Assembly (NCBI GenBank): GCA_023701205.1
Contig: JAMPXJ010000006.1
Coordinates: forward strand, 86,404-150,403
From: Oligoflexia bacterium
GTDB lineage: Bacteria; Bdellovibrionota; UBA1018
Length of the DNA: 64,000 bases
Direction: 5' to 3'
Both the position numbers and the translations under genes were made by a program. The notes beneath the pieces are model-generated. The model saw only the letters and a list, made by a program, of their open reading frames with translations, did no database searches and was not told the origin of the DNA. This document shows positions 17,185 to 58,713 of this stretch, one piece after another (positions within the stretch are counted from its first letter, which is position 1; each line of letters starts with the position of its first letter).

Positions 17185-19269
17185 ATGGATCACGGCGAGC
17201 AGGGCCCAAACGACGAGACCGTCACCGAAACATCCCGCAACGCGCCCCTGGCGCGCAAGGCGGCGCTCTTCTCCCTCGAGGTTCCCGCGGGCGGCGCTCC
17301 GCTCGAGGCGGATCAACAGCGCGTCTTCCGCCTGGGCAAGGAGCGCATCGTCGTAGGCTCGGTCGTTTCGGCTGACGTCCGGCTCCTGGGCAAGGGCGTG
17401 GCCCCGCTTCACGCGGTGGTCGAGATCACGGGCGCGCTTTCGGGCGAGCCCGAGGCCACCGTATACGATCTGGCGAGCGATTCCGGCGTTTTCGTCAACG
17501 GTCGGAAGATCGTGACCGGCGCCCTGAAGCCGGGCGATCTGCTGCGGGTGGGGCCGCACGAGCTTCGCTTCTCGATCAGCGACGCCGAGAAGGTGGTGCC
17601 GCGCGAGCGGGTGCGCGAGGCCGAAGGCCGCAAGCTCTATCTCAATCCCGATGAGGACCTGGCGCCGCTTCTGCTTCAGAGCGACGGCGAGGTGGATAAG
17701 ATCTTCGACTTCAGCCCGTGTCGCAAACGGGCGCTCGCGGTCGTGATGTCCTGGCACGGGACGATCATCGACGTGGAGCATTTCGTGAAGGAGAAATCCG
17801 TCACCGTCGGCGCCAACCGCAGGAGCGATTTCGCCATTCCGCCGCTGCTCTCGTCGAGCCGCTACGCGATCGTCACGCGGAGCGGGGAGGACTTCGTCCT
17901 GAATCTCGATCCGCAGATGAAAGGCGTGATCCAGCGCAAAGGCAAGCTCGAGACGTTCGAGGGGATCCGCGAAGGCGCATCGGTCGCCGGGCCGCAGAGC
18001 TATGGCATCCCGATCGGCAACGAGGATTTCGCCAAGGTTTCCATCGGCGACGTCGACTTCTACCTGAGCTACACCGACGCGCCCCCGCGCGTGAAGGCGG
18101 GCCGGCTGCTCGATCGCGATCCCTTCTTCCTGCGGGTCTTCGCGACTTCCCTGCTTTTCACCGCGGTCACGATCGGGGCCATGCTCAACGCCAACGTCCC
18201 GCAGAACCTCGAGGCCGAGCAGATCCCCGAGCGGATCGCGACGATCCTCTATCAGCCGGAGAAATACAGCGCACGCCCGAAGCGTGCGCCTGAGCCCTCG
18301 AGGCCCGAGCCCGTGAGAGCCGAGACCGCGAGGCCGCAGCCCAAGCCCACGCAGGTGGCGAAGCTCGACCTTCAGCCGAATCCGGCGAACGCCAAGAAGC
18401 CCGTGCCCAAGGAAATGAACGTGGGCGCGAAGCCCGAGGTCGCGAAGAATCCGGGCGGCTCCAAGAAGAAAAGCCCGGGCCAACGCGAGGCCAAGGAAGG
18501 ACGCGGCGCGCGCGCCAAGGGTACCGAAGGCAAGAGAGGCAGTCCCAAGGCCGCTCCTGGCGACAAGCCTCAGGACAGGGCGATGCGCGCATCGGCGCAG
18601 GGAGGTCCGGGGCGCGGCGGGGGCGCAAGCCAGGTCGAGAGCATCGGCAACGTGGACTTCCTGAGCTCCGCGGGCGCGAAGATTTCAGACATCCTCGGCA
18701 ACAGCGCCGAGAAGCTCGGCAAGGGCGGTGAGCGACTCAAGGGCTTCGGCGGTTTCACCACGCAAGGGGGCGGGGGGCTCGCGCTCTCCGGTGACGGCAA
18801 GGGCGGCGGCGGGACGGCCGATTCCCTGGGCGGCCTCGCCACGAGCGGTACCGGCGGCGGGCGAGTGGGCACCGGCAAGGGCGCCGCGGGCTTGGGCAGC
18901 GGCATGATCGGAGGCAAGGCGCGCGTGGCGATCCGCACGGGCGGTCCCGAGGAGGCTGTCGTCATGGGCTCCATCGACGCCAGCGCGGTCGAAGCCGCGC
19001 TGCTCGCGCACCGGGACGAGTTCCGGCTCTGCTACGAAAAGGAAATCAACGCCGAGACGCCTGATCTTGCGGGCCGCGTGAGCACGAGCTTCGTGATCGG
19101 CTCCACGGGCCGAGTGACCCAGGCGGGCATCGAGTCGACGACCCTGAAGCACGCCAATACCGAGCGCTGCGTGCTGAACGTGATCCGGCGGATCGACTTC
19201 CCGATCCCGCGCGGGGCGGGCATCGTGCAGGTTACCTATCCGTTCAAGTTCAATCCGACGCGGCGCTAG
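17185..19269 (+). CDS. FHA-domain / single-TM / Pro-Lys-rich and Gly-rich linker / TonB_C-like periplasmic domain protein (GltG/PglI-like candidate)
   Basis: FHA-like N-terminus (VFRLGKERIVVGSVVSADVRLLGKGVAPLHAVVE...VYDLASDSGVFVNGRKI...LRVGPHELRF); TM helix FFLRVFATSLLFTAVTIGAML; PKP/KPE-rich then GGxG-rich linkers; C-terminal TonB_C-like pattern (...STSFVIGSTGRV...CVLNVIRRIDFPIPRG...VTYPFKF); SD ggagaag before ATG. Confidence 0.75.
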   Translation: MDHGEQGPNDETVTETSRNAPLARKAALFSLEVPAGGAPLEADQQRVFRLGKERIVVGSVVSADVRLLGKGVAPLHAVVEITGALSGEPEATVYDLASDSGVFVNGRKIVTGALKPGDLLRVGPHELRFSISDAEKVVPRERVREAEGRKLYLNPDEDLAPLLLQSDGEVDKIFDFSPCRKRALAVVMSWHGTIIDVEHFVKEKSVTVGANRRSDFAIPPLLSSSRYAIVTRSGEDFVLNLDPQMKGVIQRKGKLETFEGIREGASVAGPQSYGIPIGNEDFAKVSIGDVDFYLSYTDAPPRVKAGRLLDRDPFFLRVFATSLLFTAVTIGAMLNANVPQNLEAEQIPERIATILYQPEKYSARPKRAPEPSRPEPVRAETARPQPKPTQVAKLDLQPNPANAKKPVPKEMNVGAKPEVAKNPGGSKKKSPGQREAKEGRGARAKGTEGKRGSPKAAPGDKPQDRAMRASAQGGPGRGGGASQVESIGNVDFLSSAGAKISDILGNSAEKLGKGGERLKGFGGFTTQGGGGLALSGDGKGGGGTADSLGGLATSGTGGGRVGTGKGAAGLGSGMIGGKARVAIRTGGPEEAVVMGSIDASAVEAALLAHRDEFRLCYEKEINAETPDLAGRVSTSFVIGSTGRVTQAGIESTTLKHANTERCVLNVIRRIDFPIPRGAGIVQVTYPFKFNPTRR

Positions 19270-19279
19270 TACTGCGTCC

Positions 19280-19403
19280 GCGAGGAGACTATCCTAACTC
19301 AGCTCAGGCTCGCGGGGGACATCCTGTCCACAACAAACCCTCGCCTGGACCCTCCTGGTCCAGCTCGGCTTATCAGCTGAGCTGAGTAGGATAGTCTCCT
19401 CGC
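19280..19403. repeat. Near-perfect 27/28-bp inverted repeat separated by 69 nt, between convergent genes
   Basis: Arm1 19280-19307 GCGAGGAGACTATCCTAACTCAGCTCAG; arm2 19377-19403 CTGAGCTGAGTAGGATAGTCTCCTCGC (reverse complement with a single 1-nt indel); smaller hairpins inside (ggaccctcctggtcc) and downstream (aggcccggcatagcgggcct; ggctcgctttgcgagcc). Confidence 0.7.
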
Positions 19404-19483
19404 TCCATTCCTCGTCTAGGCCCGGCATAGCGGGCCTAAGGTACTGGCTCGCTTTGCGAGCCTCGCACGGAGCGAGGAGGCGA

Positions 19484-20056
19484 CTACTCCTTCTTAAGCG
19501 CGAGGAACCGGAAGACCTTGTAGCCGGCGGCGGCCGAGGTGTACATCACGCGCCGAACCGTCTCGTACTGCACGCGTTTGTCGGCCTGGATGGCCAGGAC
19601 GCCCTCGAACGGCAGGGGGTTGCCCTTCTCGTCGCGGGTCTTGGACTTCGCGCGCAGCAGCTCGGCCTTGTCCCGCGCCTTCGTCAAGGCGTCATAGAGC
19701 GGCACGATCCGGCGTCCGCCCTCGTCGAGGTCCGTTTTCCTGAATTCGTAGCTCGGTCCCGAGCCATCGAGGCTCGCCGCCGTCTGCACGAACTCGAGGA
19801 TGCGCTCGTTCTCGAAAGTGACCGCCTCGGGCGTGATGATGACCTGCAGGCTCTCCGGGGGCATTTCCTCCGAACGCGAGATCGGAAGCTGCATGCCCGG
19901 GACGGTGGTAAAGGTATTGATCGTCGTCGAGTAGCTCTTCAGGAGGAAAACGACGATGATCACCAGCACGTCCATCATGCTCGTGAGCTGGAGCTCGAAG
20001 ACCTGATTGATCTTGCGCCGGCCCCGGCGCGAGCGGATCGAGCGGTGGAAGGCCAT
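19484..20056 (-). CDS. ExbD/TolR-family biopolymer transport protein (AglS-like candidate)
   Basis: Basic N-terminus, single TM (LTSMMDVLVIIVVFLL), periplasmic ExbD-like domain; ATGA overlap with the upstream ExbD gene. Confidence 0.8.
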   Translation of the reverse strand: MAFHRSIRSRRGRRKINQVFELQLTSMMDVLVIIVVFLLKSYSTTINTFTTVPGMQLPISRSEEMPPESLQVIITPEAVTFENERILEFVQTAASLDGSGPSYEFRKTDLDEGGRRIVPLYDALTKARDKAELLRAKSKTRDEKGNPLPFEGVLAIQADKRVQYETVRRVMYTSAAAGYKVFRFLALKKE

Positions 20057-22527: not shown

Positions 22528-25461
22528 ATGTCCAAGCCCCTCTTCGCCGATCCGGAGCACACGCTCTATCTCCTCGACATCAGCTCCTTCATCTTCCGGG
22601 CCTTCTTCGCGATCCGTTCCCTGAGCACGCGAAGCGGCGAGCCCGTGAATGCGGTGTACGGAGTGGCCACGATGCTCGCCCGGATCGCCGAGGAGGCGCG
22701 CCCGCAGTACCTCGCGGTGGCTTACGATTCCCCGGAGCCTTCGTTCCGCGAGGAGCTCTATGCGGAGTACAAGGCCAATCGCTCGGAGCCCCCCGAGGAC
22801 CTCATCCCTCAGTTCGCGCGGATCGAGGAGCTGGTGCGGCGCTTCGAGATCCATTCCTACCGCATGCCCGGTCTCGAAGCCGATGACCTGATCGCAACAC
22901 TCGCGCGCAAGTGGTGCGCGGAATCGCCTGTGAACCGCGCCGTGATCGTGACGGGCGACAAGGATCTCATGCAGCTCGTGGATGAGCGTACGCGGGTCTG
23001 GGACACGATGGCGCAGAAAATTTACGGCCCGGACGAGGTCTTCGAGAAGATGGGCGTGCGCCCCGATCAGATCCGCGATTACCTCGGGCTGGTCGGCGAC
23101 AGCTCCGACAATATCCCCGGAGTGGCGGGGGTCGGCCCCAAGACCGCCGCGGAGCTGCTCAAGGAGTACGGCGATCTCGACCGCATCCTGGCCGCGGCCG
23201 CCGTCGGCAAGATCAAGGGCAAGCGCGGCGAGACGCTCGCCGCGAGCGAGAAGGTGGCGCGGCTTTCGGCGGAGCTTGCGACCGTGCGCTCGGACCTGGA
23301 CGTTCAGCTCCGGCGAGACGAGCTCGTCTACCGCTTTCATGTCAACGAGAAGTGCCGGGACTTCCTGCTCTCGATGGACTTCAACTCGCTCGTGGCGCGT
23401 TGGGCGAAGGACGCTCAGGAAGGGGTGGTCAACGGAGTGAAGGCGTCTGTCCCTCTCGCCACGCAGGCCGCGTCTCCGAAAACCGCGGAACTTGCGACCA
23501 CCGGGCAGGCCTCCTTCGCGCTGGAGGCACCGGGTTTCGCCGGCGCGGCTCCGCCTGCTGCTGATTCCGCCCCTCCGGTCACGCCTGCCTCCGCGCCCGC
23601 TCCCGCGACCGTGAATCTTCCCGCGCTCGTGGGCCCGGACAAGATCTTCCGCACAGTGAATACCGAAGACGATTTCCAGGCGCTGCTCGCCGCCCTCGAG
23701 AAGGCGCACGAGGTGGGCTTCGATCTGGAGACCACCTCGCTCAATCCGCGCCAGGCCGAGATCGTGGGCTTCGCCCTTTGCCATGACCCGAAGTTCGCCT
23801 GCTACGTACCCGTGGGCCATCGCCCAAGCCTCGCGGGTCCGCCCGTGGAGCAGCTTTCGCTTTCGCGCGTGCTCGAAGGGCTCCGGCCTTTCCTGGAGGA
23901 TCCCCGCCGCAAGAAGATCGGGCAGAACCTCAAGTACGACTGGAACGTCCTGGCCGCTCACGGCGTGCATGCCGACGGGATCGGCGCCGACACGATGGTC
24001 GCCGCCTACGTGCTCGATCCCGAGGGGCGGCACAACCTGGCGACCCTGGCCGCCTCTTATCTCGACTATTCGGTGCTCACCTACGAGCAGGTCTGCGGCA
24101 AAGGCAAGGACGCGCTTTCCTTCGATCAGGTGCCCATCGATCTTGCGACCCGGTATTCGGCCGAGGACGCCTGGATCGCCATGCGGCTCTGGCTCCAGCT
24201 CAAGGAGCGCCTCGCGCAGGAGCGCTTAATGGAGGTCTTCGCGCGCGTGGATCTCCCGCTCGTGCAGGTGCTGGCCGACATGGAGTCCGAGGGCGTCTCG
24301 ATCGATACGGAGTGGCTGCGGCAGCTCTCCGAGGAATTTTCGCGCGAGCTGCGCGCGATCGAAAGCCGTATCCAGGCTTACACCTCGGGCCCGATCAACC
24401 TCAATTCCCCCAAGCAGCTCGCTGTGCTGCTCTTTGAGCAGCTCAAGCTCCCGGTGCAGGGCAAGACCAAAACGGGCTACTCCACCGATGCGCAGGTGCT
24501 CGAGACGCTCGCGCCGCTGCACGAGGTTCCGCGGCTGCTGCTGGAGTACCGCGAGATCTCCAAGCTCAAGGGGACGTACGTCGATCCGCTTCCGCTGATG
24601 CGCGATTCGAAGACGGGAAAGATCCACGCGAGCTTCCACCAGACGGTGGCCGCCACGGGGCGGCTTTCGAGCTCCGAACCCAATCTCCAGAACATCCCGA
24701 TCCGGACGGAGCGCGGGCGTAAGATCCGCCGAGCCTTCGTCCCCTCGCCGGGGAATGTCCTGGTTGCGGCCGACTACAGCCAGATCGAACTCCGGCTGCT
24801 CGCGCACATGAGCGGGGATCCGGAGCTCGGGCGCGCGTTCCGCGAGGACGAGGACGTCCATCGACAGACCGCCGCCGAGATCTTCCGCATTCCGGGCGCG
24901 GAGGTCGACGAGCGCCAGCGCGGCATTGCCAAGGCGATCAACTTCGGCCTGATGTACGGCAAGACCGCCTTCGGGCTCGCGCAGGAGCTCAAGATCTCCC
25001 GCAAGGAGGCGCAGGAGACGATCGACCGCTACTTCCAGCGCTACGGCGCCGTGAAGCGCTTCCTCGATCAGCAGATCCTCGACGCGCGCGAGAACGGCTA
25101 TGTCACGACGCTTCTTGGCCGCAAGCGCGCGCTTCCCGATATCGCTTCCAGGAATCAGGCGATCCGCAACAACGCCGAGCGCATGGCCATGAACTCGCCC
25201 ATCCAGGGCACGGCCGCGGATCTCATGAAGCTCGCGATGACCGAGCTCGCGCACCGCCTGCGCGGCGAAGGCCTGCGCTCGAAGCTCATCATCCAGGTCC
25301 ACGACGAGGTCGTGCTCGATTGCCCGCGCGAGGAGGCCGAAGCCGTCAAGGCGCTCGTGACCCGCGTGATGGAATCCTCGGGCGATGGGCATCTGGGCAT
25401 GAAGCTCTCCGTCCCCCTGCGCGTGAACGCGGCGGTCGGGGCGAACTGGATGGATCTGTAG
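22528..25461 (+). CDS. polA: DNA polymerase I
   Basis: 5'-nuclease N-terminus (LYLLDISSFIFRAFFA), 3'-5' exo and polymerase motifs (RRAFVP...DYSQIELR; KAINFGLMYG; QVHDE); 977 aa. Confidence 0.95.
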   Translation: MSKPLFADPEHTLYLLDISSFIFRAFFAIRSLSTRSGEPVNAVYGVATMLARIAEEARPQYLAVAYDSPEPSFREELYAEYKANRSEPPEDLIPQFARIEELVRRFEIHSYRMPGLEADDLIATLARKWCAESPVNRAVIVTGDKDLMQLVDERTRVWDTMAQKIYGPDEVFEKMGVRPDQIRDYLGLVGDSSDNIPGVAGVGPKTAAELLKEYGDLDRILAAAAVGKIKGKRGETLAASEKVARLSAELATVRSDLDVQLRRDELVYRFHVNEKCRDFLLSMDFNSLVARWAKDAQEGVVNGVKASVPLATQAASPKTAELATTGQASFALEAPGFAGAAPPAADSAPPVTPASAPAPATVNLPALVGPDKIFRTVNTEDDFQALLAALEKAHEVGFDLETTSLNPRQAEIVGFALCHDPKFACYVPVGHRPSLAGPPVEQLSLSRVLEGLRPFLEDPRRKKIGQNLKYDWNVLAAHGVHADGIGADTMVAAYVLDPEGRHNLATLAASYLDYSVLTYEQVCGKGKDALSFDQVPIDLATRYSAEDAWIAMRLWLQLKERLAQERLMEVFARVDLPLVQVLADMESEGVSIDTEWLRQLSEEFSRELRAIESRIQAYTSGPINLNSPKQLAVLLFEQLKLPVQGKTKTGYSTDAQVLETLAPLHEVPRLLLEYREISKLKGTYVDPLPLMRDSKTGKIHASFHQTVAATGRLSSSEPNLQNIPIRTERGRKIRRAFVPSPGNVLVAADYSQIELRLLAHMSGDPELGRAFREDEDVHRQTAAEIFRIPGAEVDERQRGIAKAINFGLMYGKTAFGLAQELKISRKEAQETIDRYFQRYGAVKRFLDQQILDARENGYVTTLLGRKRALPDIASRNQAIRNNAERMAMNSPIQGTAADLMKLAMTELAHRLRGEGLRSKLIIQVHDEVVLDCPREEAEAVKALVTRVMESSGDGHLGMKLSVPLRVNAAVGANWMDL

Positions 25462-25537
25462 CCCATCGCGCTCCCTCGCTTCGCTCGGGCTGGCGCCATC
25501 CATGGCGCGCAAGCCCCCTCACGATACCTTGAACGGG

Positions 25538-26188
25538 CTAAGCTCCGCAGAGCAGCGATTCGTCCAGCGAGCGCCAGCCTTCCACGGCCCGGTCGACCGA
25601 GGAGGCCCGCCCTGCGCTGAAAAGGAGCGCGTGTCTTCCGTCAGCGGATACGCCATAGCTCAGTGCATGGTTTGGGTTCGTGCGCACGGTTTTGCAAAAA
25701 CGGCCTGACTTCAAAAGGGTGAAGCCGTAGGAGTGCAGTAAGCCCAGGCGGTCTTCGGAGAACTCCACGATCAAATAGAGTGTCGCCACTGGTGCGCCCA
25801 AGAATCGACCGAGTACGCCCGAAATCGTGGGAGGGAAGTCCAGCGTCGCGTTTTTCCCGCTTAGGCCTTTCGCGGAGAGAATCAGGCCCTCATTCACAAA
25901 GTAGTTCTCATCGCAGATTTCCGTTCCCCGGACGTGTACGCAATTGGTTTCGAAATTGTCAGTTATCCGGGAGGTGATCGTACCTCCGTGAGGCGGAACG
26001 AAGTTGTGCAGCGGTTCCGTGCTGTTTACCGGTAAGCTGGCGGGCAATAACCGGATCTCGCTCGCGGGTAGCTTGGCGGCCGGAAGATCCGCGATAGGAA
26101 TGGATGGGGGCTGTTCCGCGCAGCCGCCAAGCAGGAGTCCGAAGCCGATGCTGACAACTAGCGCCGAATTCCGTCTTAACGGATTCAT
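25538..26188 (-). CDS. Hypothetical lipoprotein (reduced-GC region)
   Basis: Signal peptide plus lipobox LLGGC; no recognisable catalytic motifs. Confidence 0.5.
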   Translation of the reverse strand: MNPLRRNSALVVSIGFGLLLGGCAEQPPSIPIADLPAAKLPASEIRLLPASLPVNSTEPLHNFVPPHGGTITSRITDNFETNCVHVRGTEICDENYFVNEGLILSAKGLSGKNATLDFPPTISGVLGRFLGAPVATLYLIVEFSEDRLGLLHSYGFTLLKSGRFCKTVRTNPNHALSYGVSADGRHALLFSAGRASSVDRAVEGWRSLDESLLCGA

Positions 26189-26251
26189 TCAAGGGAGGGT
26201 AACATACGTCTCAAGTTGCCTGCCAGCTGGAAGGCCGGTTAGGATTGCTTT

Positions 26252-26893
26252 ATGCGATTTCTAATTCTGCTGATCTCTTCCTTTGTTGTGAACGCCTCGG
26301 AGGCCGACACGGTTTCCAAGATGCTTGACGCTGATAGGGCCACGGAGCAGGCGCTCTTCAAGCAGGCCGGGGGAGTGTTCAGTCGGCCAAAGCCCGGAAC
26401 GCTCAAGCTCAAGCTCACGAACGGGAAGGAAAAGGAGTTCCTGGATAATCCCAGCGATGGAGATACTCACGTCAACTATGCTCTTCAGAAGCTTTATCCC
26501 AAAGCGGGGTTCGCCCTCCTTCATCTGGCACTCTACGAAGGGGAAGATTACCTGCTGCTCCGGCTTTCAGATGGCTGGAATACCGTCCTTCCGGATCTTC
26601 CGGTCTGGTCTCCCGATTTCGCCTTTTTCGCGATTGCACACGACGGCGGCGAGGCCCAGTATACGCCGGATGAGGTGGCGATCTGGAGTTGTGCGGCCAC
26701 CGAGCGCGGATGCGAAAGGATCTGGCAGACCCCGAGGGACCCGGAGACACGCGTTTCTACCTATGCGGGGCGGCGCGCCTTGTGGAAATCCAAAAACACG
26801 GTGGAGCTCACGATGAGTCGCAACGACAAGTCGTTCAGCGCCGTGTGCATGTGCCAGATCAAGGCCTGCCGCTGCAGTCCCGATCCTCAGTAA
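26252..26893 (+). CDS. Secreted hypothetical protein; 3' end lies inside repeat copy A
   Basis: Signal peptide MRFLILLISSFVVNASEA; ~50% GC; last ~9 codons (CRCSPDPQ) are encoded by the repeat. Confidence 0.5.
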   Translation: MRFLILLISSFVVNASEADTVSKMLDADRATEQALFKQAGGVFSRPKPGTLKLKLTNGKEKEFLDNPSDGDTHVNYALQKLYPKAGFALLHLALYEGEDYLLLRLSDGWNTVLPDLPVWSPDFAFFAIAHDGGEAQYTPDEVAIWSCAATERGCERIWQTPRDPETRVSTYAGRRALWKSKNTVELTMSRNDKSFSAVCMCQIKACRCSPDPQ

Positions 26894-26951
26894 ATCGGCC
26901 CGAGCGGGCGCCGCCCGATCCTTCGTAACGCGTCCGGAAGCGCAGCCACGG
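26862..26951. repeat. Copy A of a ~75-90 bp repeat (AGGCCTGCCGCTGCAGTCCCGATCCTCAGTAAAYCGGCCCGAGCGGGCGCCGCCCGATCCTTCGYAACG...GCGCAGCCACGG)
   Basis: Near-identical to 31293-31386 and partially to 29051-29123, seen by direct comparison. Confidence 0.65.
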
Positions 26952-27491
26952 TGATCGGGGTCGGAAGGTTCTCTCGTATTTCTGGTCAAATCCGCACGAA
27001 AAATCGTTTGTTCGCGATCACTTGGCCATTGGAAGAAGGATTCGGTCCTGAAGGAAAGAATCAGTGTTGCCGTACCTTTGGGATAAAGAGTCGACTTTCC
27101 ATGTCTTGCATTGGCTTCAAAGATTGGCTTCAGTTTGGAATCGTTGAACTCCGCTCCCAGAGAATCAATCTCCTCAGGCGAGAGCTCTTGAAAAAGGTAT
27201 CCGACGGCCGCGAACTCGCGTGCTTCTGCTGACGTAGCGGCGCGCCGCTCTTTAGCGATAACCGATACCGCAAGAAAGAAAGCCGACCGACTTCTCCACG
27301 GCGGGTGTAGTCCCCAAGATCCCGCTGCGTGATTTCTGCGGAAATGCTGAAGGGGTCGGATTACAGCGACGCGGGGCGAGGCGCGCGGATGCGTCGTGCC
27401 GACGAGGGCGCGCTTTCTTAACGGCCCGGGAGTGGCAAGCGCCCCCGAGCGAACCTGTTTTTCCAGAAACGACTTCAGATAACTGAACAAA

Positions 27492-28979
27492 ATGCCGATT
27501 AACTCAGATGTGGGCTATTTTCTGTGGCTTCTACCCTTAGCTCTCCTCCTTTCGTCGGACCTCCGGGCTACCGAAGACCCCTGCGCGACTTCCGCAACTC
27601 GCACGGCCGCCGCTCCTGACGAGCAGATCCTGAAGATAGAGCAGCTCGCAACCACTCTCGCGGAAGACCTTCGCCCGAAGCACCGCGCGTATCTCGGGCC
27701 CGAGGAGCTTCGGGAGCAAGACACACGGACCCTGGCCAAGTTGCTTGTGACTCGTCTCCGAGAGGGGTGTGAAGCTCCCAAAGAAACCGGCGCATCCAGC
27801 AAGGATCTTCAAGCGGACGTCATCATGATGGTTCCTCACGCCAATTTTGAGGGGATCGCGCGTTTTGGATTTCTCAACCAGCACAAGACTCAAGCCTCGA
27901 TCGGAGCTTCGGACCGAAAGGGCCGCTTTCTCGCGGAACAGGACTTCTCCTTGATGCGCCTTCCTTACAGCGACAAAGGCAAGGAGCTATTGCCCAAGTA
28001 CGCCATCTTGAACCTGAAGGGCGGGGACTTCGGAAAATTTTCGCTTCCGGCGCACTACGGCGATGTAGCGGTGGTTTTCAAGCCTGAGGTGAAGCAGAGA
28101 ATGATCTGGAGCTACACTGACAGTCTAGGGACGGACAAATCGCGCCGGCGTCTGCGCCGCCCCCCGATGACCGCGCAGTACGAAACACCGGAAGCAAACA
28201 GGAAGGCTTGCTACGGATATTGCGAAGCGCAGATCTGGGGCGCCCTCGACCTGACGGATGTCGCCTACCTGATGATCAAGGAAGGGGATAAGGTTCCGGA
28301 GTCGCTCAAGAAGCTGGGAGTCCCGGTCTATTTTTATCGTCCCGAGCCCAATCCGGAACACGCCGCCGGCTTCACCCGGCTGGAGCAGGCTGTAGCGGGA
28401 AATCCAGCCAGGATCAAACGCCCGGATGTCCTCACTTTGAGCGAAATCGAAAAGGCGAAGAATGAACCTGCCGTGAGGGATATTCCAAAGCCATTCCCCA
28501 ATCCGATAAAAAGTATCTTGGTAAGCAAGGAACAAAGCATCCTCTCCGAAAGCGAGCTCCTTGAGCGGATCAGCTCCCCAGAATCCACTCCCGCTGATCG
28601 TGAATCCGATTCGGCATTCGACCCCAAGGAGCAATTGGTCGCCGAGTTGGCCACCCGACCTAAGACGCCAGCGGTGATCCGCAAGCTCAAGGAACTGATG
28701 ACGGATTCCTCCGTTCATATTCGCTCCCAAGCGGCCTATGGTTTAAGCGAGCTTCCTTGGAGCGAATTCAAACGCATCGCCTTGCACTGTCTGAAGGACT
28801 CGTCGGAGGTCGTGAAGCTGGAATGCCTCGCCCTGGTGGCGGATCACCTCACGGACGACGCCGATATCGCCAAGGCGATCAGGGAGCTTGAAGCCGCCGA
28901 GGGTGATTCAAAACTCAAGGATTGGATCAAGGTCTTGCAGGCGAAGCGTCTTTGCGATTCCATGGCTTCCGAGAGGTGA
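27492..28979 (+). CDS. Secreted protein of unknown function with C-terminal HEAT/ARM-like repeats (low-GC island)
   Basis: Signal peptide MPINSDVGYFLWLLPLALLLSS; C-terminal helical repeats (PAVIRKLKELMTDSSVHIRSQAAYGLSEL...); ~50% GC. Confidence 0.55.
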   Translation: MPINSDVGYFLWLLPLALLLSSDLRATEDPCATSATRTAAAPDEQILKIEQLATTLAEDLRPKHRAYLGPEELREQDTRTLAKLLVTRLREGCEAPKETGASSKDLQADVIMMVPHANFEGIARFGFLNQHKTQASIGASDRKGRFLAEQDFSLMRLPYSDKGKELLPKYAILNLKGGDFGKFSLPAHYGDVAVVFKPEVKQRMIWSYTDSLGTDKSRRRLRRPPMTAQYETPEANRKACYGYCEAQIWGALDLTDVAYLMIKEGDKVPESLKKLGVPVYFYRPEPNPEHAAGFTRLEQAVAGNPARIKRPDVLTLSEIEKAKNEPAVRDIPKPFPNPIKSILVSKEQSILSESELLERISSPESTPADRESDSAFDPKEQLVAELATRPKTPAVIRKLKELMTDSSVHIRSQAAYGLSELPWSEFKRIALHCLKDSSEVVKLECLALVADHLTDDADIAKAIRELEAAEGDSKLKDWIKVLQAKRLCDSMASER

Positions 28980-29050
28980 GGAACGCCGTATACCCATCCT
29001 TGCGCCCTAGGCTGACGGAAAAAAGTTTAACGCTGTTTGCCAGTCTCGTG

Positions 29051-29123
29051 CCTCAGTAAACCGGCCCGAGCGGACACCGCCCGGTCCTTCGCAGGGTCTG
29101 CGTGCGAAAGCCCGGCCACGGCA
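29051..29123. repeat. Copy B (5'-truncated, more diverged) of the island repeat
   Basis: cctcagtaaaccggcccgagcgg...ccgcccggtccttcgcagggtctgcgtgcgaaagcccggccacggca aligns with copies A and C. Confidence 0.55.
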
Positions 29124-29372
29124 GGTGCGTCGTCGTTCATAATGCAATGCAACGTGAAGTGCGCTATTTTTCAAGCCCGCTGTGTTCATGGACGAAAGGT
29201 AACTGATGGGATTCACCGCCCAAATACGGTCACTCATTCATGCGGTCACGATCCTCGGATGCCTTCTGACCTCGTATGATGCCTCGGCGACAGGGGGGCC
29301 TCCGAGCGCCCACGGCTATCCCCCATCCCTGAGCACCAACTGAGCGAGCAAGCCCTGGCTCGTCAGGGCCGA

Positions 29373-29822
29373 GTGATCGAGTTTCGAAAAATCCAGGATT
29401 TCACCCGGAAGTTCGGTTCTCAAGCGGCGCTCGCCCGCGAGTCCTTCCTCGATTGGCTTCAATACGTCCATGCCGACGTGGAGCGCGAAGGCGGCAACAA
29501 GGGTATCTTGCCCGAGCTTTTTGACTATGATCTCGACCGCATTTTTCATCCGGACCAGCCCGTCAAGATTCAATACGTCGAAAATGGCAAAGGAACCGCC
29601 GAGAACTTTCTGGAGTTCCTGACGCGCGAATTTCCCGGGACGCGTTGGCAGGTAGAAAAGGTTGCCGCTCTCGATTCTTTCCCAGCCGATGTCCGGACGA
29701 TGGCATCGCGAAAAATGCCGCCCATCGAGATGAAGGCGGAGGTCGCGGCGAATCTGGATCAGCTGGTAAGCTATATGCTCAAGCCACGCGCTACGACTTG
29801 GATCCGCCGGAAAAGGAGTTGA
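29373..29822 (+). CDS. Hypothetical protein (GTG start); possibly the N-terminal part of a frameshifted longer gene
   Basis: Protein-like 149-aa ORF in frame 0; overlaps the next ORF (other frame) by ~180 nt. Confidence 0.4.
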   Translation: MIEFRKIQDFTRKFGSQAALARESFLDWLQYVHADVEREGGNKGILPELFDYDLDRIFHPDQPVKIQYVENGKGTAENFLEFLTREFPGTRWQVEKVAALDSFPADVRTMASRKMPPIEMKAEVAANLDQLVSYMLKPRATTWIRRKRS

Positions 29823-31294
29823 AGGAGTTCATTTCAAAGCTCGGACCCCTCACCAGGAAAAACGCCGTGTCATCAGCGCGCCTTGACCAGCTCAGATCCG
29901 AGCTGGCCTCGCTGTTCTATGGCGCAACGAATTTCGAGCGGGCTTATCCGATCTTTTCACGGGTCGGTTTCGATTCCTTCATGAAGAAGCTCTCCTTTGC
30001 GCATGAGGGAGATTTCGATGGGGAACTGGATAAGTGGTTCAGCAAGGAGTACGTGAAGTGGTCGCCCGCTAAAAAGGAGGGACCCAACGACTGGATGTTC
30101 GAGACGCTTGTTCACAACACCAACAGAGAAAGCTACTGGCAGCTGGAAAGGAATCCTTTCGGGGTGTTGAACGCGGTTTATTCTAGTCGTAATGACGGCT
30201 TTGGTCATGCCGAATCCGGCGACGGCTTCTATGTTTTCGGCAAAGCGCCGCCCTATGCCGCCTATGGGGAAAATCGAATCTATTTTCGAACGGCTCAAAC
30301 GCCCGACACGGCCGCGCTTCGAAGAGGGTCGGCCCTGAAAGACGAGGCGACGATCCTCTATGCCGAGGACTTCCGAATCATCCCGGAAACCTTTCCTTCG
30401 AGTCCCGCCGCCCTGGCGGACGCATTCGTTCGTCCCGAGTCCTTCGCCGACCCGGGAAATCCGGGAAAGATAACGGTGCTTCACCGGCGAATCGATCGCA
30501 ACTGGAGTCCGGAGCTTGTGCGCGAGCTGGATAGAGCACTCGCGGAACGGCCGGATAACCTGCTCTACTATCTTCAGCTAAAAAAGGGTCCGGAATGGGA
30601 CGGACTAAAACGCTTGATTGACTCCAGGGTCGCGGCGAGGACGCTGACGGATGAGGAGCTTTTTGGTTTATTCAGCATGCGACAGTGGAAGCAGGCACCA
30701 GAGATGAGCAAGTGGGTCAGGGAACTTGCCAAGGACGAAGCCCGGTTTGCGCGCCTTGCGACAGGCTTAGCGGCCGCCAACCGATCCTTTGATACGACAG
30801 GAAATCACTTCGCTCAGGCTCTTTTGGAGATCGGAGAAAGGAATCTGGCCAATCAGGCGCTCAGGCAGGCGATGCAGGTACCTCGGCTGCGTAGCAAGAT
30901 GATTGACGTGGTTTTCACCCAGGAGTCGTCGGCAGGCGCCAAGAGGATCTTCGCGCAGCAGGTGAAGTTGGCGCTCAAGGAGAAACATCACTTACCCGTA
31001 ATGACGCTTTTGGATTCGGTTTATCGGAAGCCGCACTCGGTCGCGTTCGAGGACCATCTCGAAGAGATCTGCGCCTATGTGAAGAGGACGAATGACTCGC
31101 AGCTGAACGACGCGTTGATCCGGGCGCTATATCAGGGCCCGGACACCGCACGGCGCTTGCAGCGGCCTGAGATCCGGGCGCTGTTGGATGACAAAGCATT
31201 CCGGAGCAGGCTTTCGGCGCACGCGCGGCAGCAGCTTCTTGAGATCGAGAAGGCGCCATTGAAGTGCACGAAGGCTTTTGAGGGTCTGAATTAG
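29645..31294 (+). CDS. Hypothetical protein, start uncertain; the first ~50 codons look non-genuine, and a -1 frameshift join to 29373.. or a TTG start at 29818 are both possible
   Basis: Long balanced-composition ORF ending in TAG 52 nt upstream of repeat copy C (31347-31410); N-terminal MAGRKGCRSRFFPSRCPDDG... is low-complexity. Confidence 0.5.
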   Translation: MAGRKGCRSRFFPSRCPDDGIAKNAAHRDEGGGRGESGSAGKLYAQATRYDLDPPEKELKEFISKLGPLTRKNAVSSARLDQLRSELASLFYGATNFERAYPIFSRVGFDSFMKKLSFAHEGDFDGELDKWFSKEYVKWSPAKKEGPNDWMFETLVHNTNRESYWQLERNPFGVLNAVYSSRNDGFGHAESGDGFYVFGKAPPYAAYGENRIYFRTAQTPDTAALRRGSALKDEATILYAEDFRIIPETFPSSPAALADAFVRPESFADPGNPGKITVLHRRIDRNWSPELVRELDRALAERPDNLLYYLQLKKGPEWDGLKRLIDSRVAARTLTDEELFGLFSMRQWKQAPEMSKWVRELAKDEARFARLATGLAAANRSFDTTGNHFAQALLEIGERNLANQALRQAMQVPRLRSKMIDVVFTQESSAGAKRIFAQQVKLALKEKHHLPVMTLLDSVYRKPHSVAFEDHLEEICAYVKRTNDSQLNDALIRALYQGPDTARRLQRPEIRALLDDKAFRSRLSAHARQQLLEIEKAPLKCTKAFEGLN

Positions 31295-31317
31295 GCCTGC
31301 CGCTGCAGTCCCGATCC

Positions 31318-31836
31318 TCAGTAAACCGGCCCGAGCGGGCGCCGCCCGATCCTTCGCAACGTCTGCGTGCGAAAGCGCAGCCACGGCACATGCGCGGCGC
31401 GCTCGGCCTGGAGCCCGAGCTGCGAGGGCAGGGGAAGCTTTCTCACCCACGCCGCCGCCTGCGCCACGGCCTCCTCGACGAGCACGGTTCCGGTGTCGCC
31501 GCCGGGCCCGGGAATTCGCGAGTCGAGGTCAATCGGGCTTTCGATGAATGCACGATAATGCGGGTAGGCCCAAAGATGGAATTCCAGCACCGCCGGAAGC
31601 CCGAACTCGCGCACGGCGCCTTCGAGCTCCTGGTAGGCCGAGCCCCCTGAAGACTGCGGGGCCAGGAGCTTTTCGGCATGCAGCTCGATCGGCGCGGAGG
31701 CGGGGCGTTCGGCCTCGCGCTCGCCGGCTTCCTCGAGCACCTCGAGTAGCCGCTCCTCGCCCAGAAGCGCCGCGAGCCGCCGCAGCGTTTCCGCATGGGC
31801 TTCCAGGAGCTGGCAGAGGAATTCCACGATCCGCAT
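31318..31836 (-). CDS. Hypothetical protein (3' end runs into repeat copy C)
   Basis: Balanced composition versus the Arg/Pro-rich opposite frame; high GC, so core genome. Confidence 0.4.
   Translation of the reverse strand: MRIVEFLCQLLEAHAETLRRLAALLGEERLLEVLEEAGEREAERPASAPIELHAEKLLAPQSSGGSAYQELEGAVREFGLPAVLEFHLWAYPHYRAFIESPIDLDSRIPGPGGDTGTVLVEEAVAQAAAWVRKLPLPSQLGLQAERAAHVPWLRFRTQTLRRIGRRPLGPVY
31347..31410. repeat. Copy C of the island repeat, apparent right boundary of the low-GC block; its own 5'/3' ends were not resolved
   Basis: Near-identical to copy A over ~70 nt by direct comparison; also contributes the 3' end of the minus-strand ORF 31318..31836. Confidence 0.65.
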
Positions 31837-31842
31837 TCCCGC

Positions 31843-32529
31843 TCAGTACCTCTTCGGGGTGAAGACCGCCCGCCAATGCGCGGGCGTCGGCGCGGTGATC
31901 GTGCCCCCCGGCCATTCCGCGATGCCGCGCGAAAGCTCGTTGGGATCGGTGAAGCGCGGATCCAGGATCACGTACCACTGCCCGCGCCAGAGCGCGTCGT
32001 CCGGGTTGTCCGTCCTGCTCTCGAGAAACCCCGCGTTCTCGGTGAAGAGCACGATCCCGTGTGGCCAGAGCTGTTCGGTGAGCGTCTGATTCCACCTCTC
32101 GATCAGCGGGATCTGCACCCACGCGTCGAGGATCCAGAAACGCCAGCCCAGGGAGCAGGCCTGGGCCGCGAGCGCGTTCTCCCAGATGCGGTCATAGCGC
32201 TCGAGCTTTTCCTTGGGAATAAAGCTGAAGAGCGCGTCGGGCAGCACGCGCGTGCGCTTTCGGGCGGAAGAGGCCGGGCGTTCGATCAGCTCGGTGAGAT
32301 CCCCGTCGAGACTGGCGCTCAGCCGGAGCTCCTGGACCCGGGTTTCCCATTCGCCGAGGCGCCTGGCCTCGTCGCGCTGCCCTTTGGCCAGGCAGCCGGA
32401 CTTGCGCGCGTGGATCGCGCGATGGATATCCCGGAGCACCGCAAGCTTGAGCAGGAAGGCCGAAGGCCCGCCGCTCTCGCCGATCTGCTTCCAGAGATCG
32501 GTACTGCGCTCGAGAAGGGGGTGGATCAT
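31843..32529 (-). CDS. Hypothetical protein
   Basis: W/F/Y-containing balanced ORF; ATGA overlap with the upstream gene; opposite-strand ORF 31795..32565 rejected on composition. Confidence 0.5.
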   Translation of the reverse strand: MIHPLLERSTDLWKQIGESGGPSAFLLKLAVLRDIHRAIHARKSGCLAKGQRDEARRLGEWETRVQELRLSASLDGDLTELIERPASSARKRTRVLPDALFSFIPKEKLERYDRIWENALAAQACSLGWRFWILDAWVQIPLIERWNQTLTEQLWPHGIVLFTENAGFLESRTDNPDDALWRGQWYVILDPRFTDPNELSRGIAEWPGGTITAPTPAHWRAVFTPKRY

Positions 32530-32936
32530 GACTCGTCCGAAGGTTTCGGCCGCAGGATGGGATAGCTGATGCCCGGGCCCTTGCGGAAATTCGGCGCCTT
32601 CTTGGGCTGCGCCTGGACCTCGGGCGCGGCAAGCGGCGCGAACGCGGAAAGCGGCTTGAGCTCGCGCTGCGCCTGCACGGTGCCGCGGTGGAATTCCAGC
32701 AGCGCATCGATCACGCCCTGATCCTTGAGCGCGGGTTGGTACTCCTGGCGCGCCGTCACCGGACGCGGAGCGGGGGGCCTGGCAGCCCTCCCTGACAGCC
32801 GGGCTCGTGCTGCGGCTAGGGCGCTGGACTTGGGCGCGGCCGGGGTTTCGGGCGCGGCGGGTGCGGCCTTGGCGACCGGGATGCTTTCACGCGCGATCGC
32901 GGCCAGGGAGCCCAGGAGCTGCAACGACTGCTGCAT
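32526..32936 (-). CDS. Hypothetical Ala/Pro-rich protein (start at internal ATG 32936; the longer ORF overlaps its neighbour)
   Basis: MQQSLQLLGSLAAIARE...; stop overlaps the downstream start (ATGA). Confidence 0.35.
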   Translation of the reverse strand: MQQSLQLLGSLAAIARESIPVAKAAPAAPETPAAPKSSALAAARARLSGRAARPPAPRPVTARQEYQPALKDQGVIDALLEFHRGTVQAQRELKPLSAFAPLAAPEVQAQPKKAPNFRKGPGISYPILRPKPSDES

Positions 32937-33025
32937 CTGAGTGAATCCCGGGGCCGGCCCCGGCTCCAGGCGCTGCGAGTGAGAGAGGAGAGCGCGCGCG
33001 AGGTTCGCGAGCTCCTGTTTTTTCT

Positions 33026-33475
33026 TCAGGCCAGAATCCAAAGATCGACCTCCTTGAACTGCCGGGCGATGAACTCCTCGCTCGCGTTGCCGAAGTCCCT
33101 GCGGGAGATCCCGACTTTGGGGATCTTGAGCGAGGCCAGGTTCTTTTTCAGCGCTTGGATCGTTTCGGCCGGGGGCAGGTGGCGTTCCCCGGGGCGATGG
33201 GCGGAGCCGGCTCCGGCGAGGATCAGGTGATAGGTTATTCCGTGGCGGGTGAAGGGAAAATACGCGCATTCCCCCGGGGCTCCGGTGATCGCGCCCGAAC
33301 GCAGGTTGCGCGACAGCGCGCCCTGAAAACGCCAGTCCATCAGGCCCGCCAGTCCCTGCAGCGGGCGTTCGTTCTCGTGAAAGGTCACGACGAGACCTGC
33401 GACTTCGCCTTCAAAGAGGGCCTGTTCGGCCGGGATATCCAGGGAATGATGGACGTGTTTGCTCGCGGAACTCAC
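33026..33475 (-). CDS. Hypothetical protein
   Basis: 149-aa balanced ORF upstream of, and co-oriented with, the two genes above. Confidence 0.45.
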   Translation of the reverse strand: MSSASKHVHHSLDIPAEQALFEGEVAGLVVTFHENERPLQGLAGLMDWRFQGALSRNLRSGAITGAPGECAYFPFTRHGITYHLILAGAGSAHRPGERHLPPAETIQALKKNLASLKIPKVGISRRDFGNASEEFIARQFKEVDLWILA

Positions 33476-33558
33476 CCGATCAGTTTAACCGGTTCGGGAG
33501 GCGGCCCGCAAGCTTGGCGCGGCCCCGGGAGCGCGTCCGTGGGCAGAAACTGCCGAGC

Positions 33559-34008
33559 TCAGTCCTGGGCGGTCCGGGGGGCTTTGCGGAGAGCATCCAG
33601 AATCCCATTGACGAAAGCGGGGGTTTCCGCGCTTCCGAACTCCTTGGCCAGCTCGATCGCCTCGTCGATGACCACGGAGGCGGGGACCTCGGGCTTGATC
33701 AGAGTCAGCTCATAAGCCGCCATGCGAAGCAGCGCCCGGTCGATGAAGGCCATGCGCGCGAGCTTCCAGTTGGCGGCATGGGTCTCGAGCAGCCCGTCGA
33801 TCGCGGGCCCGTTCTGGAGCGTCCCGGCCACGAGCTGGGAGGCGTACTCGCGGATGCCCTGGGGCGTCTGGAAGTGCTCGAAATGTCCCTGCAGCTCGCG
33901 AACGAGTTCCGCGCCAGCTGGCGCGGGCTGGCCGGTGGACTGGGCCTTGACGTCGAATCGATAGAGGATCTGCAACGCGACTTCGCGCGCCTTGTGCCGT
34001 GATTTCAT
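33559..34008 (-). CDS. nusB: Transcription antitermination factor NusB
   Basis: MKSRHKAREVALQILY... N-terminus and ...AFVNGILD... C-terminal motif typical of NusB; 149 aa. Confidence 0.85.
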   Translation of the reverse strand: MKSRHKAREVALQILYRFDVKAQSTGQPAPAGAELVRELQGHFEHFQTPQGIREYASQLVAGTLQNGPAIDGLLETHAANWKLARMAFIDRALLRMAAYELTLIKPEVPASVVIDEAIELAKEFGSAETPAFVNGILDALRKAPRTAQD

Positions 34009-34517
34009 ACTTTGCTTTCGTTGGAATGGATGAAGGGAAACTCAAGGTGCACGGCGTCGCCGGAGCTGGCGCTCGGGATGCCCTGCAGCTCGGCCACGAA
34101 CTCCTCGACGTCGCGGAAGTCGCGGTAAACCGAGGCGAAGCGCACATAAGCGACCTTGTCGAGGCTCTGCAGGTGGATCATGACCATCTGGCCGATCGTG
34201 CGGGCCGGGATCTCCTTGAGGCCGTAGCTCTGCACCTTCTTCTCGATGGCATTGACCGCTTCCTCGATCTTCTGCATCGGGACCGAGCGCTTCTGGCAGG
34301 CTTTCTGGATGCCCTCGAGGACCTTGGCGCGGTTGTAATCCTCGCGCCGGCCGTCCTTCTTGATGACCACGGGCATGACCTCCTCGACCCGCTCATAGGT
34401 CGTGAAGCGGCCTTCACAGCGCGCGCAGGCGCGACGCCGGCGGATCATGTCCCCGGGCTGGTTCATCCGCGAGTCGATGACCTTGGTGTCAGGTGTGGAG
34501 CAAAAAGGGCATTTCAC
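34005..34517 (-). CDS. nrdR: Transcriptional repressor NrdR (GTG start; the longest ORF would start at TTG 34553)
   Basis: N-terminal zinc ribbon KCPFCS...CARCEGRFTTYE and ATP-cone (VIKKDGRREDYNRAKV); 4-nt overlap with nusB. Confidence 0.8.
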   Translation of the reverse strand: MKCPFCSTPDTKVIDSRMNQPGDMIRRRRACARCEGRFTTYERVEEVMPVVIKKDGRREDYNRAKVLEGIQKACQKRSVPMQKIEEAVNAIEKKVQSYGLKEIPARTIGQMVMIHLQSLDKVAYVRFASVYRDFRDVEEFVAELQGIPSASSGDAVHLEFPFIHSNESKV

Positions 34518-34569
34518 TCTTTTGCTTGTAGCTGATCCGGGGAAAGCGATCAACCCTCGTCGCGCCCGC

Positions 34570-35883
34570 TCAGCCGTAAAGCGGGAATTTCCCGCAGAGT
34601 TCCCGGACTTCCGCCCGGATGCGCCCGAGCTGCGCGGCTTCGCCCCGGGCCTGCAGCGCCTGCCGGATCCAGACGCCGATCTGCCGCATCTCCGCCTTGC
34701 CCATCCCCCGCGTTGTGATCGCCGGAACGCCGATGCGGATGCCGCTGGTGACGAACGGGCTGCGTTTTTCGTTCGGAACCGTGTTCTTGTTGACCGTGAT
34801 CCCCGCCTGATCGAGCCAGGCTTCGGCCTCTTTACCCGAAATGGAGCCGTCGAGAGAGGCAGTCAGGTCGATGAGCATCAGATGGTTGTCCGTGCCGCCG
34901 CTCACGAGCTTGAATCCCTGGCTCATCAGGGCGTCAGCCAGCGCACGCGCGTTTTCCAGGATCTGCTTTTGGTAGGCCTGGAACTCGGGAGTGAGCGCTT
35001 CGCCGAAGGAGACGGCCTTGGCCGCGATCACGTGCATGAGCGGGCCGCCCTGGATCCCCGGGAAGATCTGGGAATTGACGGCTTTCAGCCGATCGGCAGC
35101 GGTTCCGAGGGTCTCTCCGGGGGAAGGGCCCCGGCCGACCAGGATCAGCCCGCCCCGCGGTCCGCGAAGCGTCTTATGGGTGGTCGAGGTCGTATAGGTC
35201 GTATGGGGAAGCGGGGAAGGGTGCAGGCCCGCCGCGACCAGCCCGGCGATATGGGCCATGTCGACCACGAGGTGCGCGCCGGTTTCGCGCGCGATCCCGC
35301 CCAGGGCTTCGAAATCGATGATCCGCGGATAAGCGCTTGCGCCCGCGACGATGACTTTTGGCTTTTCCCTGCGGGCAAGCTCCCGGATCTGATCGTAATC
35401 GAGCCGCTCCGTCGCCGGATCGAGCCCATAGCTCACCACCCTGAACAGGCGGCCGCTGAAATTCACGGGGCTTCCGTGAGTCAGGTGCCCGCCATGCGAG
35501 AGGCTCATGCCCAGCATCGTGTCACCCGGGCTCATGAGCGCGAGGTACGCGGCCATGTTGGCCTGCGAGCCCGAATGCGCCTGGACGTTCGCGGCCTCGG
35601 CTCCGAAGAGCCGGCAGACGCGCTCGATCGCGGCCGCTTCGATCTGATCGGCGAACTCGCAACCGCCGTAGTAGCGCTTGCCCGGGTAGCCTTCGGCGTA
35701 CTTGTTGGTGAGGATGGAGCCTTGGGCTTCCAGGACCGCGCGGCTGACGTAGTTTTCCGAAGCGATGAGCTCCAGGCCCGTCTCCTCCCGCTCATGCTCG
35801 CGCCCGATCGCCGCATGAATCACGGGATCGGCGGATTGGAGATCGCTCAGGAATTTCTTCGAAGAGTCATGGGGCATCGTCAT
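34570..35883 (-). CDS. glyA: Serine hydroxymethyltransferase
   Basis: [40 protein letters not shown] motifs. Confidence 0.95.
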
Positions 35884-58619: not shown

Positions 58620-58713
58620 GCGGCAGGGCTTAGCACGCCTTTTCAGGGGTGGAAAGGGATTTGGAAGCAAAGTGCTTCCAAAATGGAAGCGGGCTTGCGC
58701 TTGCCGACGCGTT

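Follow-up and report, generated by a model that had tools for sequence, protein, structure and literature searches.

We analyzed a 64,000-nucleotide (nt) stretch of an uncultured Oligoflexia bacterium (assembly GCA_023701205.1, contig JAMPXJ010000006.1, positions 86,404 to 150,403 of the forward strand; the whole stretch is called the window here), in which a block of low GC content lies between polA and an opposite-strand gene for a conserved protein of 172 amino acids (aa). Within the block, a repeat occurs in three direct copies (A, B, and C). Judged from its sequence, this repeat is a duplicate of the 3' end of the 172-aa gene, a neighboring host gene. The copies bound two units of foreign DNA, Y and Z. 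We think, with a probability of about 0.55, that A-Y-B-Z-C is a tandem like those formed by cis-mobilizable elements (CIMEs), in which the copies are attachment (att)-type duplications from integration at the 3' end of the 172-aa gene. The original prediction, made from the letters and open reading frames (ORFs) of the window, had described a cassette array of secreted-protein genes, each followed by its own repeat. The features of the region are as follows.

22528 to 25461, plus strand: polA (DNA polymerase I), a 977-aa ORF and the left boundary of the insertion
25462 to 25537, no strand: post-polA stretch of 76 nt with a host-like GC content of 69.7%; includes the hairpin GCGCCATCCATGGCGC
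25538 to 26188, minus strand: segment X gene 1, a 216-aa lipoprotein-like ORF (N terminus ...LLLGGC) of unknown function, called as a gene in Logan contig L002
26252 to 26893, plus strand: segment X gene 2, a 213-aa ORF with a signal-peptide-like N terminus and no family match
26863 to 26951, minus strand: repeat copy A, a displaced and decayed duplicate of the 3' end of the 172-aa gene
26952 to 27491, no strand: noncoding or remnant part of unit Y, including a stop-free minus-strand stretch
27492 to 28979, plus strand: unit Y cargo, a 495-aa protein with a hydrophobic, signal-peptide-like N terminus (by eye), a SopF-like (DUF3626) alpha/beta domain, and C-terminal HEAT/ARM repeats
29029 to 29129, minus strand: repeat copy B, a displaced duplicate of the gene tail with five substitutions and the frame kept
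29207 to 31294, plus strand: unit Z cargo, a pseudogene of a rare Bdellovibrionota protein; its signal-peptide-bearing start is at 29207 and its TAG abuts copy C
31294 to 31394, minus strand: repeat copy C, which serves the 172-aa gene as its working 3' end, with codons ~149 to 172, the stop TGA at 31318 to 31320, and ~24 nt downstream
31318 to 31836, minus strand: the target gene, encoding a 172-aa all-helical protein of unknown function; last of the nrdR-nusB-hyp-hyp-hyp cluster (hyp, hypothetical gene) and normally tail-to-tail with polA

The three direct copies, each ~90 to 100 nt long, lie at 26863 to 26951 (A), 29029/29041 to 29129 (B), and 31294 to 31394 (C). They had been recognized in the original prediction, with coordinates for B and C that we have corrected. 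Copy C had been placed at 31347 to 31410, 52 nt downstream of the TAG of the last gene of the block; that span is its right half only, and copy C begins straight after the TAG. A 23-nt core, CCTCAGTAAAYCGGCCCGAGCGG, occurs exactly 3 times in the 64 kb (0 expected from 100 shuffles), and a Smith-Waterman scan of both strands found no weaker copies elsewhere in the window. Copies A and C are 91% identical (85/93; 68/70 over the first 70 nt), with a 4-nt deletion in A. Copies B and C are 87% identical over a gapless 89-nt core and 79% once the left flank is counted. The start-to-start spacing of the copies is 2166 and 2265 nt.

On the minus strand, the repeat corresponds to the last 22 to 24 codons of the 172-aa gene (HVPWLRFRTQTLRRIGRRPLGPVY), its stop codon, and ~25 nt beyond. 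The 172-aa protein has 245 homologs in Oligoflexia/Bdellovibrionota metagenome-assembled genomes (MAGs) and metagenomes, and the best 120 of the 245 cover 90 to 100% of the query. Its structural model had a mean pLDDT (predicted local distance difference test) of 88.7, and a fold search gave no informative match. The encoded tail, HVPWLRFRT..RIGRRPLGPVY, is conserved in >100 homologs and is among the best-conserved parts of the protein, with W152, F155, L160, G164, and R166 invariant in the aligned homologs. Copy C keeps every invariant tail residue. Since copy C encodes this conserved tail, it is a working piece of the host gene.

Copies A and B match the gene tail codon by codon, stop codon included. 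Copy A reads PWLRFRT, then a 4-nt frameshifting deletion, then LRRIGRRPLGPIY*, and its next 25 nt match C exactly. Elsewhere in the coding part, A and C differ mostly by synonymous changes (TTC/TTT, CGG/CGC, TTA/TTG), as expected if both once served as working gene ends. Toward the stop codon, A and C share 97% identity; toward the gene, copy A has diverged, and its TTC CGG states there are shared with the native tails of relatives. Copy B remains in frame (HLPWPGFRTQTLRRTGRCPLGPVY*) and is evenly diverged from C (87% throughout). Its five substitutions are V>L, L>P, R>G, I>T, and R>C, with the invariant R166 among the residues hit; such nonconservative changes are expected for a displaced copy. 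Thus, it is their origin from a host gene that accounts for the sequence conservation of the repeat copies.

The same sample yielded the closest genome, the Oligoflexia MAG GCA_023700925.1, in which the 172-aa protein has a homolog of 83% amino-acid identity. Its gene order is the same: nrdR, nusB, three hypothetical genes, and a 174-aa homolog of the target gene, with polA convergent. The DNA homology between the window and this genome ends at 25454 and restarts at 31317. In the relative, the polA stop and the stop of the 174-aa homolog are only 17 nt apart. Thus, the whole 5.86 kb directly 3' of polA is an insertion.

We compared ~60 further loci, drawn from genome and metagenome collections and from exact-protein look-ups. 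In most of them, polA is the convergent neighbor of the 172-aa homolog. The spacer between the two genes ranged from a 4-nt overlap to 7.5 kb in the 24 related loci with both gene ends, and it was 82 nt or less in eight. Seven relatives besides GCA_023700925.1 have an empty site of this kind, with spacers from a 4-nt overlap to 82 nt (10 nt or less in six). The longer spacers carry unrelated genes, among which an M19 dipeptidase and LemA/TPM proteins recur and secreted proteins are found, at a GC content equal to that of the flanks and without repeats. Spacers of 0 to 7.5 kb with unrelated contents make the junction of this gene with polA a variable spot across the group. No second tail copy and no homologs of the block genes were found at the ~60 loci. 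Among the loci compared, only the genome of the window has the duplicated tail and the low-GC cargo.

The GC content of the block (25462 to 31293) is 57.3%. Every other 5.8-kb segment of the window is higher (minimum, 60.5%; mean, 63.9%), and the immediate flanks are at 66 to 70%. The original prediction had given 68% outside against 50 to 55% inside; the contrast is real, at about 66 to 69% against 56 to 58%. The GC content at third codon positions (GC3) is also lower in the block genes than in host genes. The three repeat copies are host-like at 70.8% GC, though they are embedded in a block of 56 to 58% GC. The nearest relatives of the block genes are only 44 to 57% identical and lie at unrelated positions. 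The DNA of the block and its cargo are foreign, and the earlier proposal that the repeats are recombination junctions around foreign DNA is the most likely account.

We also asked whether the block could be an assembly artifact, in which low-GC DNA from another organism or strain was joined to the contig through the shared repeat. The source is a MAG, and copies A and C share exact 27- to 32-mers. The Logan assembly of the same run (SRR23907158) matches at 100% identity in three contigs (25481 to 26891, 26865 to 31322, and 31296 to 35686) whose breaks fall in the sequence common to A and C. Among the Logan contigs fetched, none spans the junction between polA and segment X, which thus has no independent support. 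Contig L002 begins 20 nt past the polA stop, at 25481, inside the 76-nt stretch, and this start hints at a possible branch point of the assembly graph. However, the independent assembly joins A-Y-B-Z-C in a single contig at 100% identity. Moreover, A and B are homologous to the gene tail of this very lineage, so the block must have resided beside such a gene. The locus tags also point to a contiguous record, judging from their spacing: the 495-aa gene is tagged NDJ89_05695 and the 172-aa gene NDJ89_05710, which leaves two tags in between for gene 3. We therefore regard an artifact as very unlikely.

How did the array arise? We propose that circular foreign elements would have integrated in tandem into the 3' end of the 172-aa gene. 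Each incoming element would have brought its own last ~24 codons, stop codon, and ~25 nt of downstream sequence, and recombination would have taken place close to the edge of the homology nearest the gene (around CCACGG, 31379 to 31394). The gene would have stayed intact, and the previous tail would have been pushed outward. The resulting order would be copy A, unit Y, copy B, unit Z, and copy C joined to the gene. Units Y and Z would then have decayed without an integrase, as CIMEs do. Tail repeats bounding foreign DNA, an intact gene, and an empty site in relatives are together the classic outcome of integration into a gene 3' end. Three copies bounding two units are what tandem accretion gives. 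The lack of a recombinase, the decaying displaced ends, and the one cargo pseudogene lead to the CIME-like reading. The tail duplication, the insertion, and the decay of the array are observed directly; from them we infer site-specific recombination, its crossover position, and the order and number of events.

The model for this reading is the set of ICESt1/CIME elements in the fda gene of Streptococcus thermophilus, where decayed integrative elements accrete in tandem at the 3' end of a protein-coding gene (PMC5704250). There, as in the window, the units are flanked by direct repeats (attL, attI, and attR) that duplicate the target gene's 3' end, with N+1 copies for N units. The gene-proximal copy preserves the gene, the elements are decaying, and the site is empty in related genomes. 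The units lack integration and transfer genes, and we found none in units Y and Z with Pfam, NCBIfam, or PHROGs. Unlike the streptococcal case, the units of the window are tiny (~2.1 to 2.3 kb, one gene each), and no related functional integrative and conjugative element, integrative and mobilizable element, or prophage was found at the ~60 loci, in phage and plasmid collections, or in IMG/VR. The duplicated segment of the window is also long and diverged (~90 to 100 nt, 80 to 91% identity) rather than a short identical core. Finally, the setting differs, with a host from an uncultured lineage of Oligoflexia and, as target, a lineage-specific gene whose function is unknown.

The length and divergence of the segment have a counterpart in Escherichia coli icd, where e14 and phage 21 supply a substitute 3' end to the target gene. 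These elements likewise carry a diverged copy of ~100 nt or more of the gene 3' end, leaving the gene functional and the old end displaced. However, they encode their own integrase and span tens of kilobases, and the block has no integrase or phage gene.

The search for a recombinase covered the window in two ways. Pfam scans of the ORFs outside 17 to 41 kb, of the block, and of three adjacent genes found no integrase, transposase, or other recombinase; for the remaining syntenic region, the absence rests on the precomputed Pfam annotation of a relative. This agrees with the original prediction, which had seen no integrase in the window. XerD and lambda Int, used as tblastn queries against all fetched DNA, gave no match in what is a weak test. 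No related element bearing an integrase was found at the ~60 loci, in a family listing that covered 25 of 61 families. We also considered a phage, plasmid, or viral origin of the block and rejected it, as neither PHROGs nor the phage, plasmid, and IMG/VR collections gave a match.

Several observations weigh against a CIME-like origin. The window has no integrase, transposase, or other recombinase, and the ~60 related loci yield no integrase-bearing relative of the elements. The units, at 2.1 to 2.3 kb and one gene each, are unusually small for decayed islands. On the polA side of segment X, a bounding copy is missing. The duplicated tail occurs in no other sampled genome, so nothing points to a family of recurrent elements. 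Nor do the copies reveal where the crossover took place, with A at 97% identity to C on the stop-codon side and B evenly at 87%. Three histories are compatible with this pattern of divergence: an earlier stay of the elements in related hosts, gene conversion among the copies, or import of an array built beforehand.

Some of these observations would fit homologous recombination of the Campbell type. Here, circularized fragments from related strains would be anchored by the ~100-bp tail and inserted by a RecA-mediated single crossover, and no dedicated recombinase would be needed. The window indeed has none, and the copies are homologous over the whole ~100 nt rather than over a short core. The TTC CGG of copy A occurs in the native tails of relatives, as if the anchors came from related genomes, and the polA spacer varies from 0 to 7.5 kb among them. 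However, ~100 bp at 80 to 90% identity is a poor substrate for a RecA crossover, and the event would be needed at least twice at one spot. The linkage of unrelated foreign genes, each to this gene tail, would also go unexplained, and none of the relatives has such a duplication. We consider this explanation unlikely.

The original prediction had interpreted the block as integron-like. Integron cassettes are also short single-gene units in one orientation, with a repeat after each and no recombinase of their own, and in the window same-strand genes each precede a repeat copy. We folded the copies as single strands, on both strands and with RNA and DNA parameters, to look for attC-like bulged hairpins. 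Folding was no better than for shuffled sequences (z of -1.6 to +1.1), and by inspection the aligned copies hold no R''/R' core sites (RYYYAAC ... GTTRRRY). The window repeats are conserved in sequence (80 to 91%) and derive from the coding tail of an opposite-strand host gene, whereas attC sites vary in sequence and keep their structure. No intI was found among the window ORFs scanned or in the syntenic annotation of the relative, and no attI or Pc was found. Only two of the units are bounded by copies on both sides.

A related idea is that the repeat is an element of the REP (repetitive extragenic palindromic) or MITE (miniature inverted-repeat transposable element) type, or an RNA or terminator element that serves the plus-strand genes. 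We found no Rfam family at the gathering score, no tRNA, and no tmRNA in the window, and no terminator-like site in the repeats. The original prediction had allowed for a ubiquitous genome-wide REP element; the 64-kb window has three copies, all local to the block and without palindromic or terminal inverted repeat structure. It had also looked to relatives that carry the same genes without repeats. That comparison does not apply, as the ~60 related loci lack these genes, and the homologs found elsewhere (L033 to L036) have no adjacent repeat. Thus, an attC array, a REP/MITE-like element, and an RNA element are all extremely unlikely.

Each gene seems paired with its own repeat only because the plus strand was read. 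What the copies bound are units Y and Z, and none lies on the polA side of segment X. As had been claimed, copy A does supply the last 9 codons and the stop of the 213-aa gene (26252 to 26893). This gene end lies in the ~25-nt intergenic part of the duplicated segment, which would explain why the repeat seems to belong to the plus-strand genes. The TAG of gene 3 in copy C is in frame with the ACRCSPDPQ* codons that end the 213-aa gene in copy A (31292 to 31323 and 26861 to 26893); such a shared frame arises by accident one time in three and is probably a coincidence.

A cassette system that is active but has no integrase of its own would not need attC hairpins. Single-gene modules of ~2 kb would then be moved by a recombinase encoded elsewhere in the genome. 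The two units are similar in size (2166 and 2265 nt), with one gene each in the same orientation, and no recombinase is nearby. Because A and C share exact 27- to 32-mers, the assembly graph also fits a circular Y-B-Z form. There are precedents for such modules in Xer-dependent elements, namely integrative mobile elements exploiting Xer recombination (IMEX) at dif and the pdif modules of Acinetobacter plasmids. These are modules without an integrase that lie between repeated recombination sites and can form tandem arrays. However, we saw no dif-like 28-bp site (two 11-nt arms with a 6- to 8-nt spacer) by inspection, and the site in the window is a coding tail that is neither structured nor palindromic. 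The only palindrome, CGGGCG-C-CGCCCG, has a 1-nt center and is broken in copy B. Only two bounded units are present, in one genome, none of the ~60 related loci has a further array, and the cargo homologs elsewhere have no tail copy beside them. An active system is thus quite unlikely. More doubtful still is its extension to an Oligoflexia cassette system, in which a recombinase acting in trans would insert, excise, and stack ~2-kb secreted-protein modules tagged with a conserved gene 3' end. If it were true, Oligoflexia would have a platform for gene capture that resembles integrons but uses a coding att site in place of attC hairpins.

Two side observations concern the repeat itself. The near-palindrome is flanked by an internal direct repeat, CCCGATCCT(C/T)(A/C)GTAA, at 26879 to 26903 and 26914 to 26938 (35 nt apart) and also in copy C (31310 to 31361). 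Its first copy lies in the noncoding part and is not in the native sequence of the relative; it could be a recombinase-binding feature or chance. In addition, a 28-nt stretch within gene 3 (30769 to 30796) matches part of the repeat at 79%, probably by chance.

We then considered the genes of the block, whose signal peptides were assigned by eye only. The three same-strand ORFs of the original prediction are present, with the third broken by two frameshifts; a fourth gene, at 25538 to 26188 on the minus strand, had been missed. The four genes are mutually unrelated, with no paralogs, and none matched a Pfam, NCBIfam, or PHROGs family above threshold. No tail copy was found beside the cargo homologs at L033 to L036.

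The 495-aa protein of unit Y has 74 homologs at 30 to 49% identity, some of which carry PF12294/DUF3626. SopF is a known DUF3626 protein (PMC6682159), and the DUF3626 region of the 495-aa protein is a putative ADP-ribosyltransferase domain. Of the homologs, the few with a named source come from Elusimicrobiota; P0122, the closest, is in a Bdellovibrionota MAG. The NCBI annotation has only a 323-aa version of this gene. Upstream of it, the minus-strand stretch 26966 to 27271 is stop free and protein-like over 102 codons, has no start codon, and reads into copy A. It may be a gene remnant of unit Y. We tested it as an integrase remnant and dropped that idea, having found only two junk-like matches among 1.8 billion representative proteins.

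The third gene, in unit Z, has frameshifts near a G6 tract (29293 to 29298) and at ~29780 to 29800 (~29790). Apart from itself, it has only two homologs (57% and 46% identical). The one from Bacteriovorax (L036) reads as a single continuous, intact frame, and the 57%-identical one, from another sample (L035), has an in-frame stop. Both frameshifts recur in an independent assembly (L037). A continuous frame in Bacteriovorax and frameshifts in an independent assembly lead us to conclude that the third gene is a pseudogene.

Segment X (25538 to 26862) is probably a separate, earlier occupant of the variable spacer, because no bounding copy lies on its polA side. The GC3 of its 216-aa ORF is 0.69, compared with 0.75 to 0.92 in host genes. 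The 76-nt stretch that follows the polA stop matches neither another part of the window nor any of the fetched loci. We looked for a fourth, degenerate copy beside polA that would bound segment X and rejected it: the sequence at 25455 to 25620 aligned with A, B, and C no better than shuffles did. We also asked whether segment X had replaced the end of polA. The polA of the window is 75% identical to that of relative L003, which has Pfam polA domains, and its C terminus, NWMDL*, is typical of relatives. We treated a 7/8 match of the left flank of copy A to the polA end of the relative as chance.

These results point to the 3' end of a lineage-specific conserved gene beside polA as a likely integration site in uncultured Oligoflexia, whose mobile elements have been almost unknown to date. 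The junction of polA with the 172-aa gene is variable across the phylum, with spacers of 0 to 7.5 kb. The block and its tail copies are a fresh example, from a poorly known lineage, of a well-known integration scar. The SopF-like (DUF3626) HEAT protein, with its apparent signal peptide, is horizontally acquired cargo and could bear on how these presumed predators act on their prey. More generally, when every gene on one strand is followed by a repeat, that repeat can simply be a duplicated tail whose gene lies on the opposite strand.

Two further observations lie outside the block. Where synteny is otherwise kept, the closest relative, L003, has two genes, for an M29 peptidase and for a GAF-HisKA-HATPase kinase, that the window lacks (L003 16408 to 17631 and 5767 to 7044, set against window 19260 to 19486 and 34537 to 34566). 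DUF4423 proteins with a helix-turn-helix (HTH) domain are encoded at 57819 to 58733 in the window and also near the nrdR cluster of a relative (L071, 1104 to 1952).

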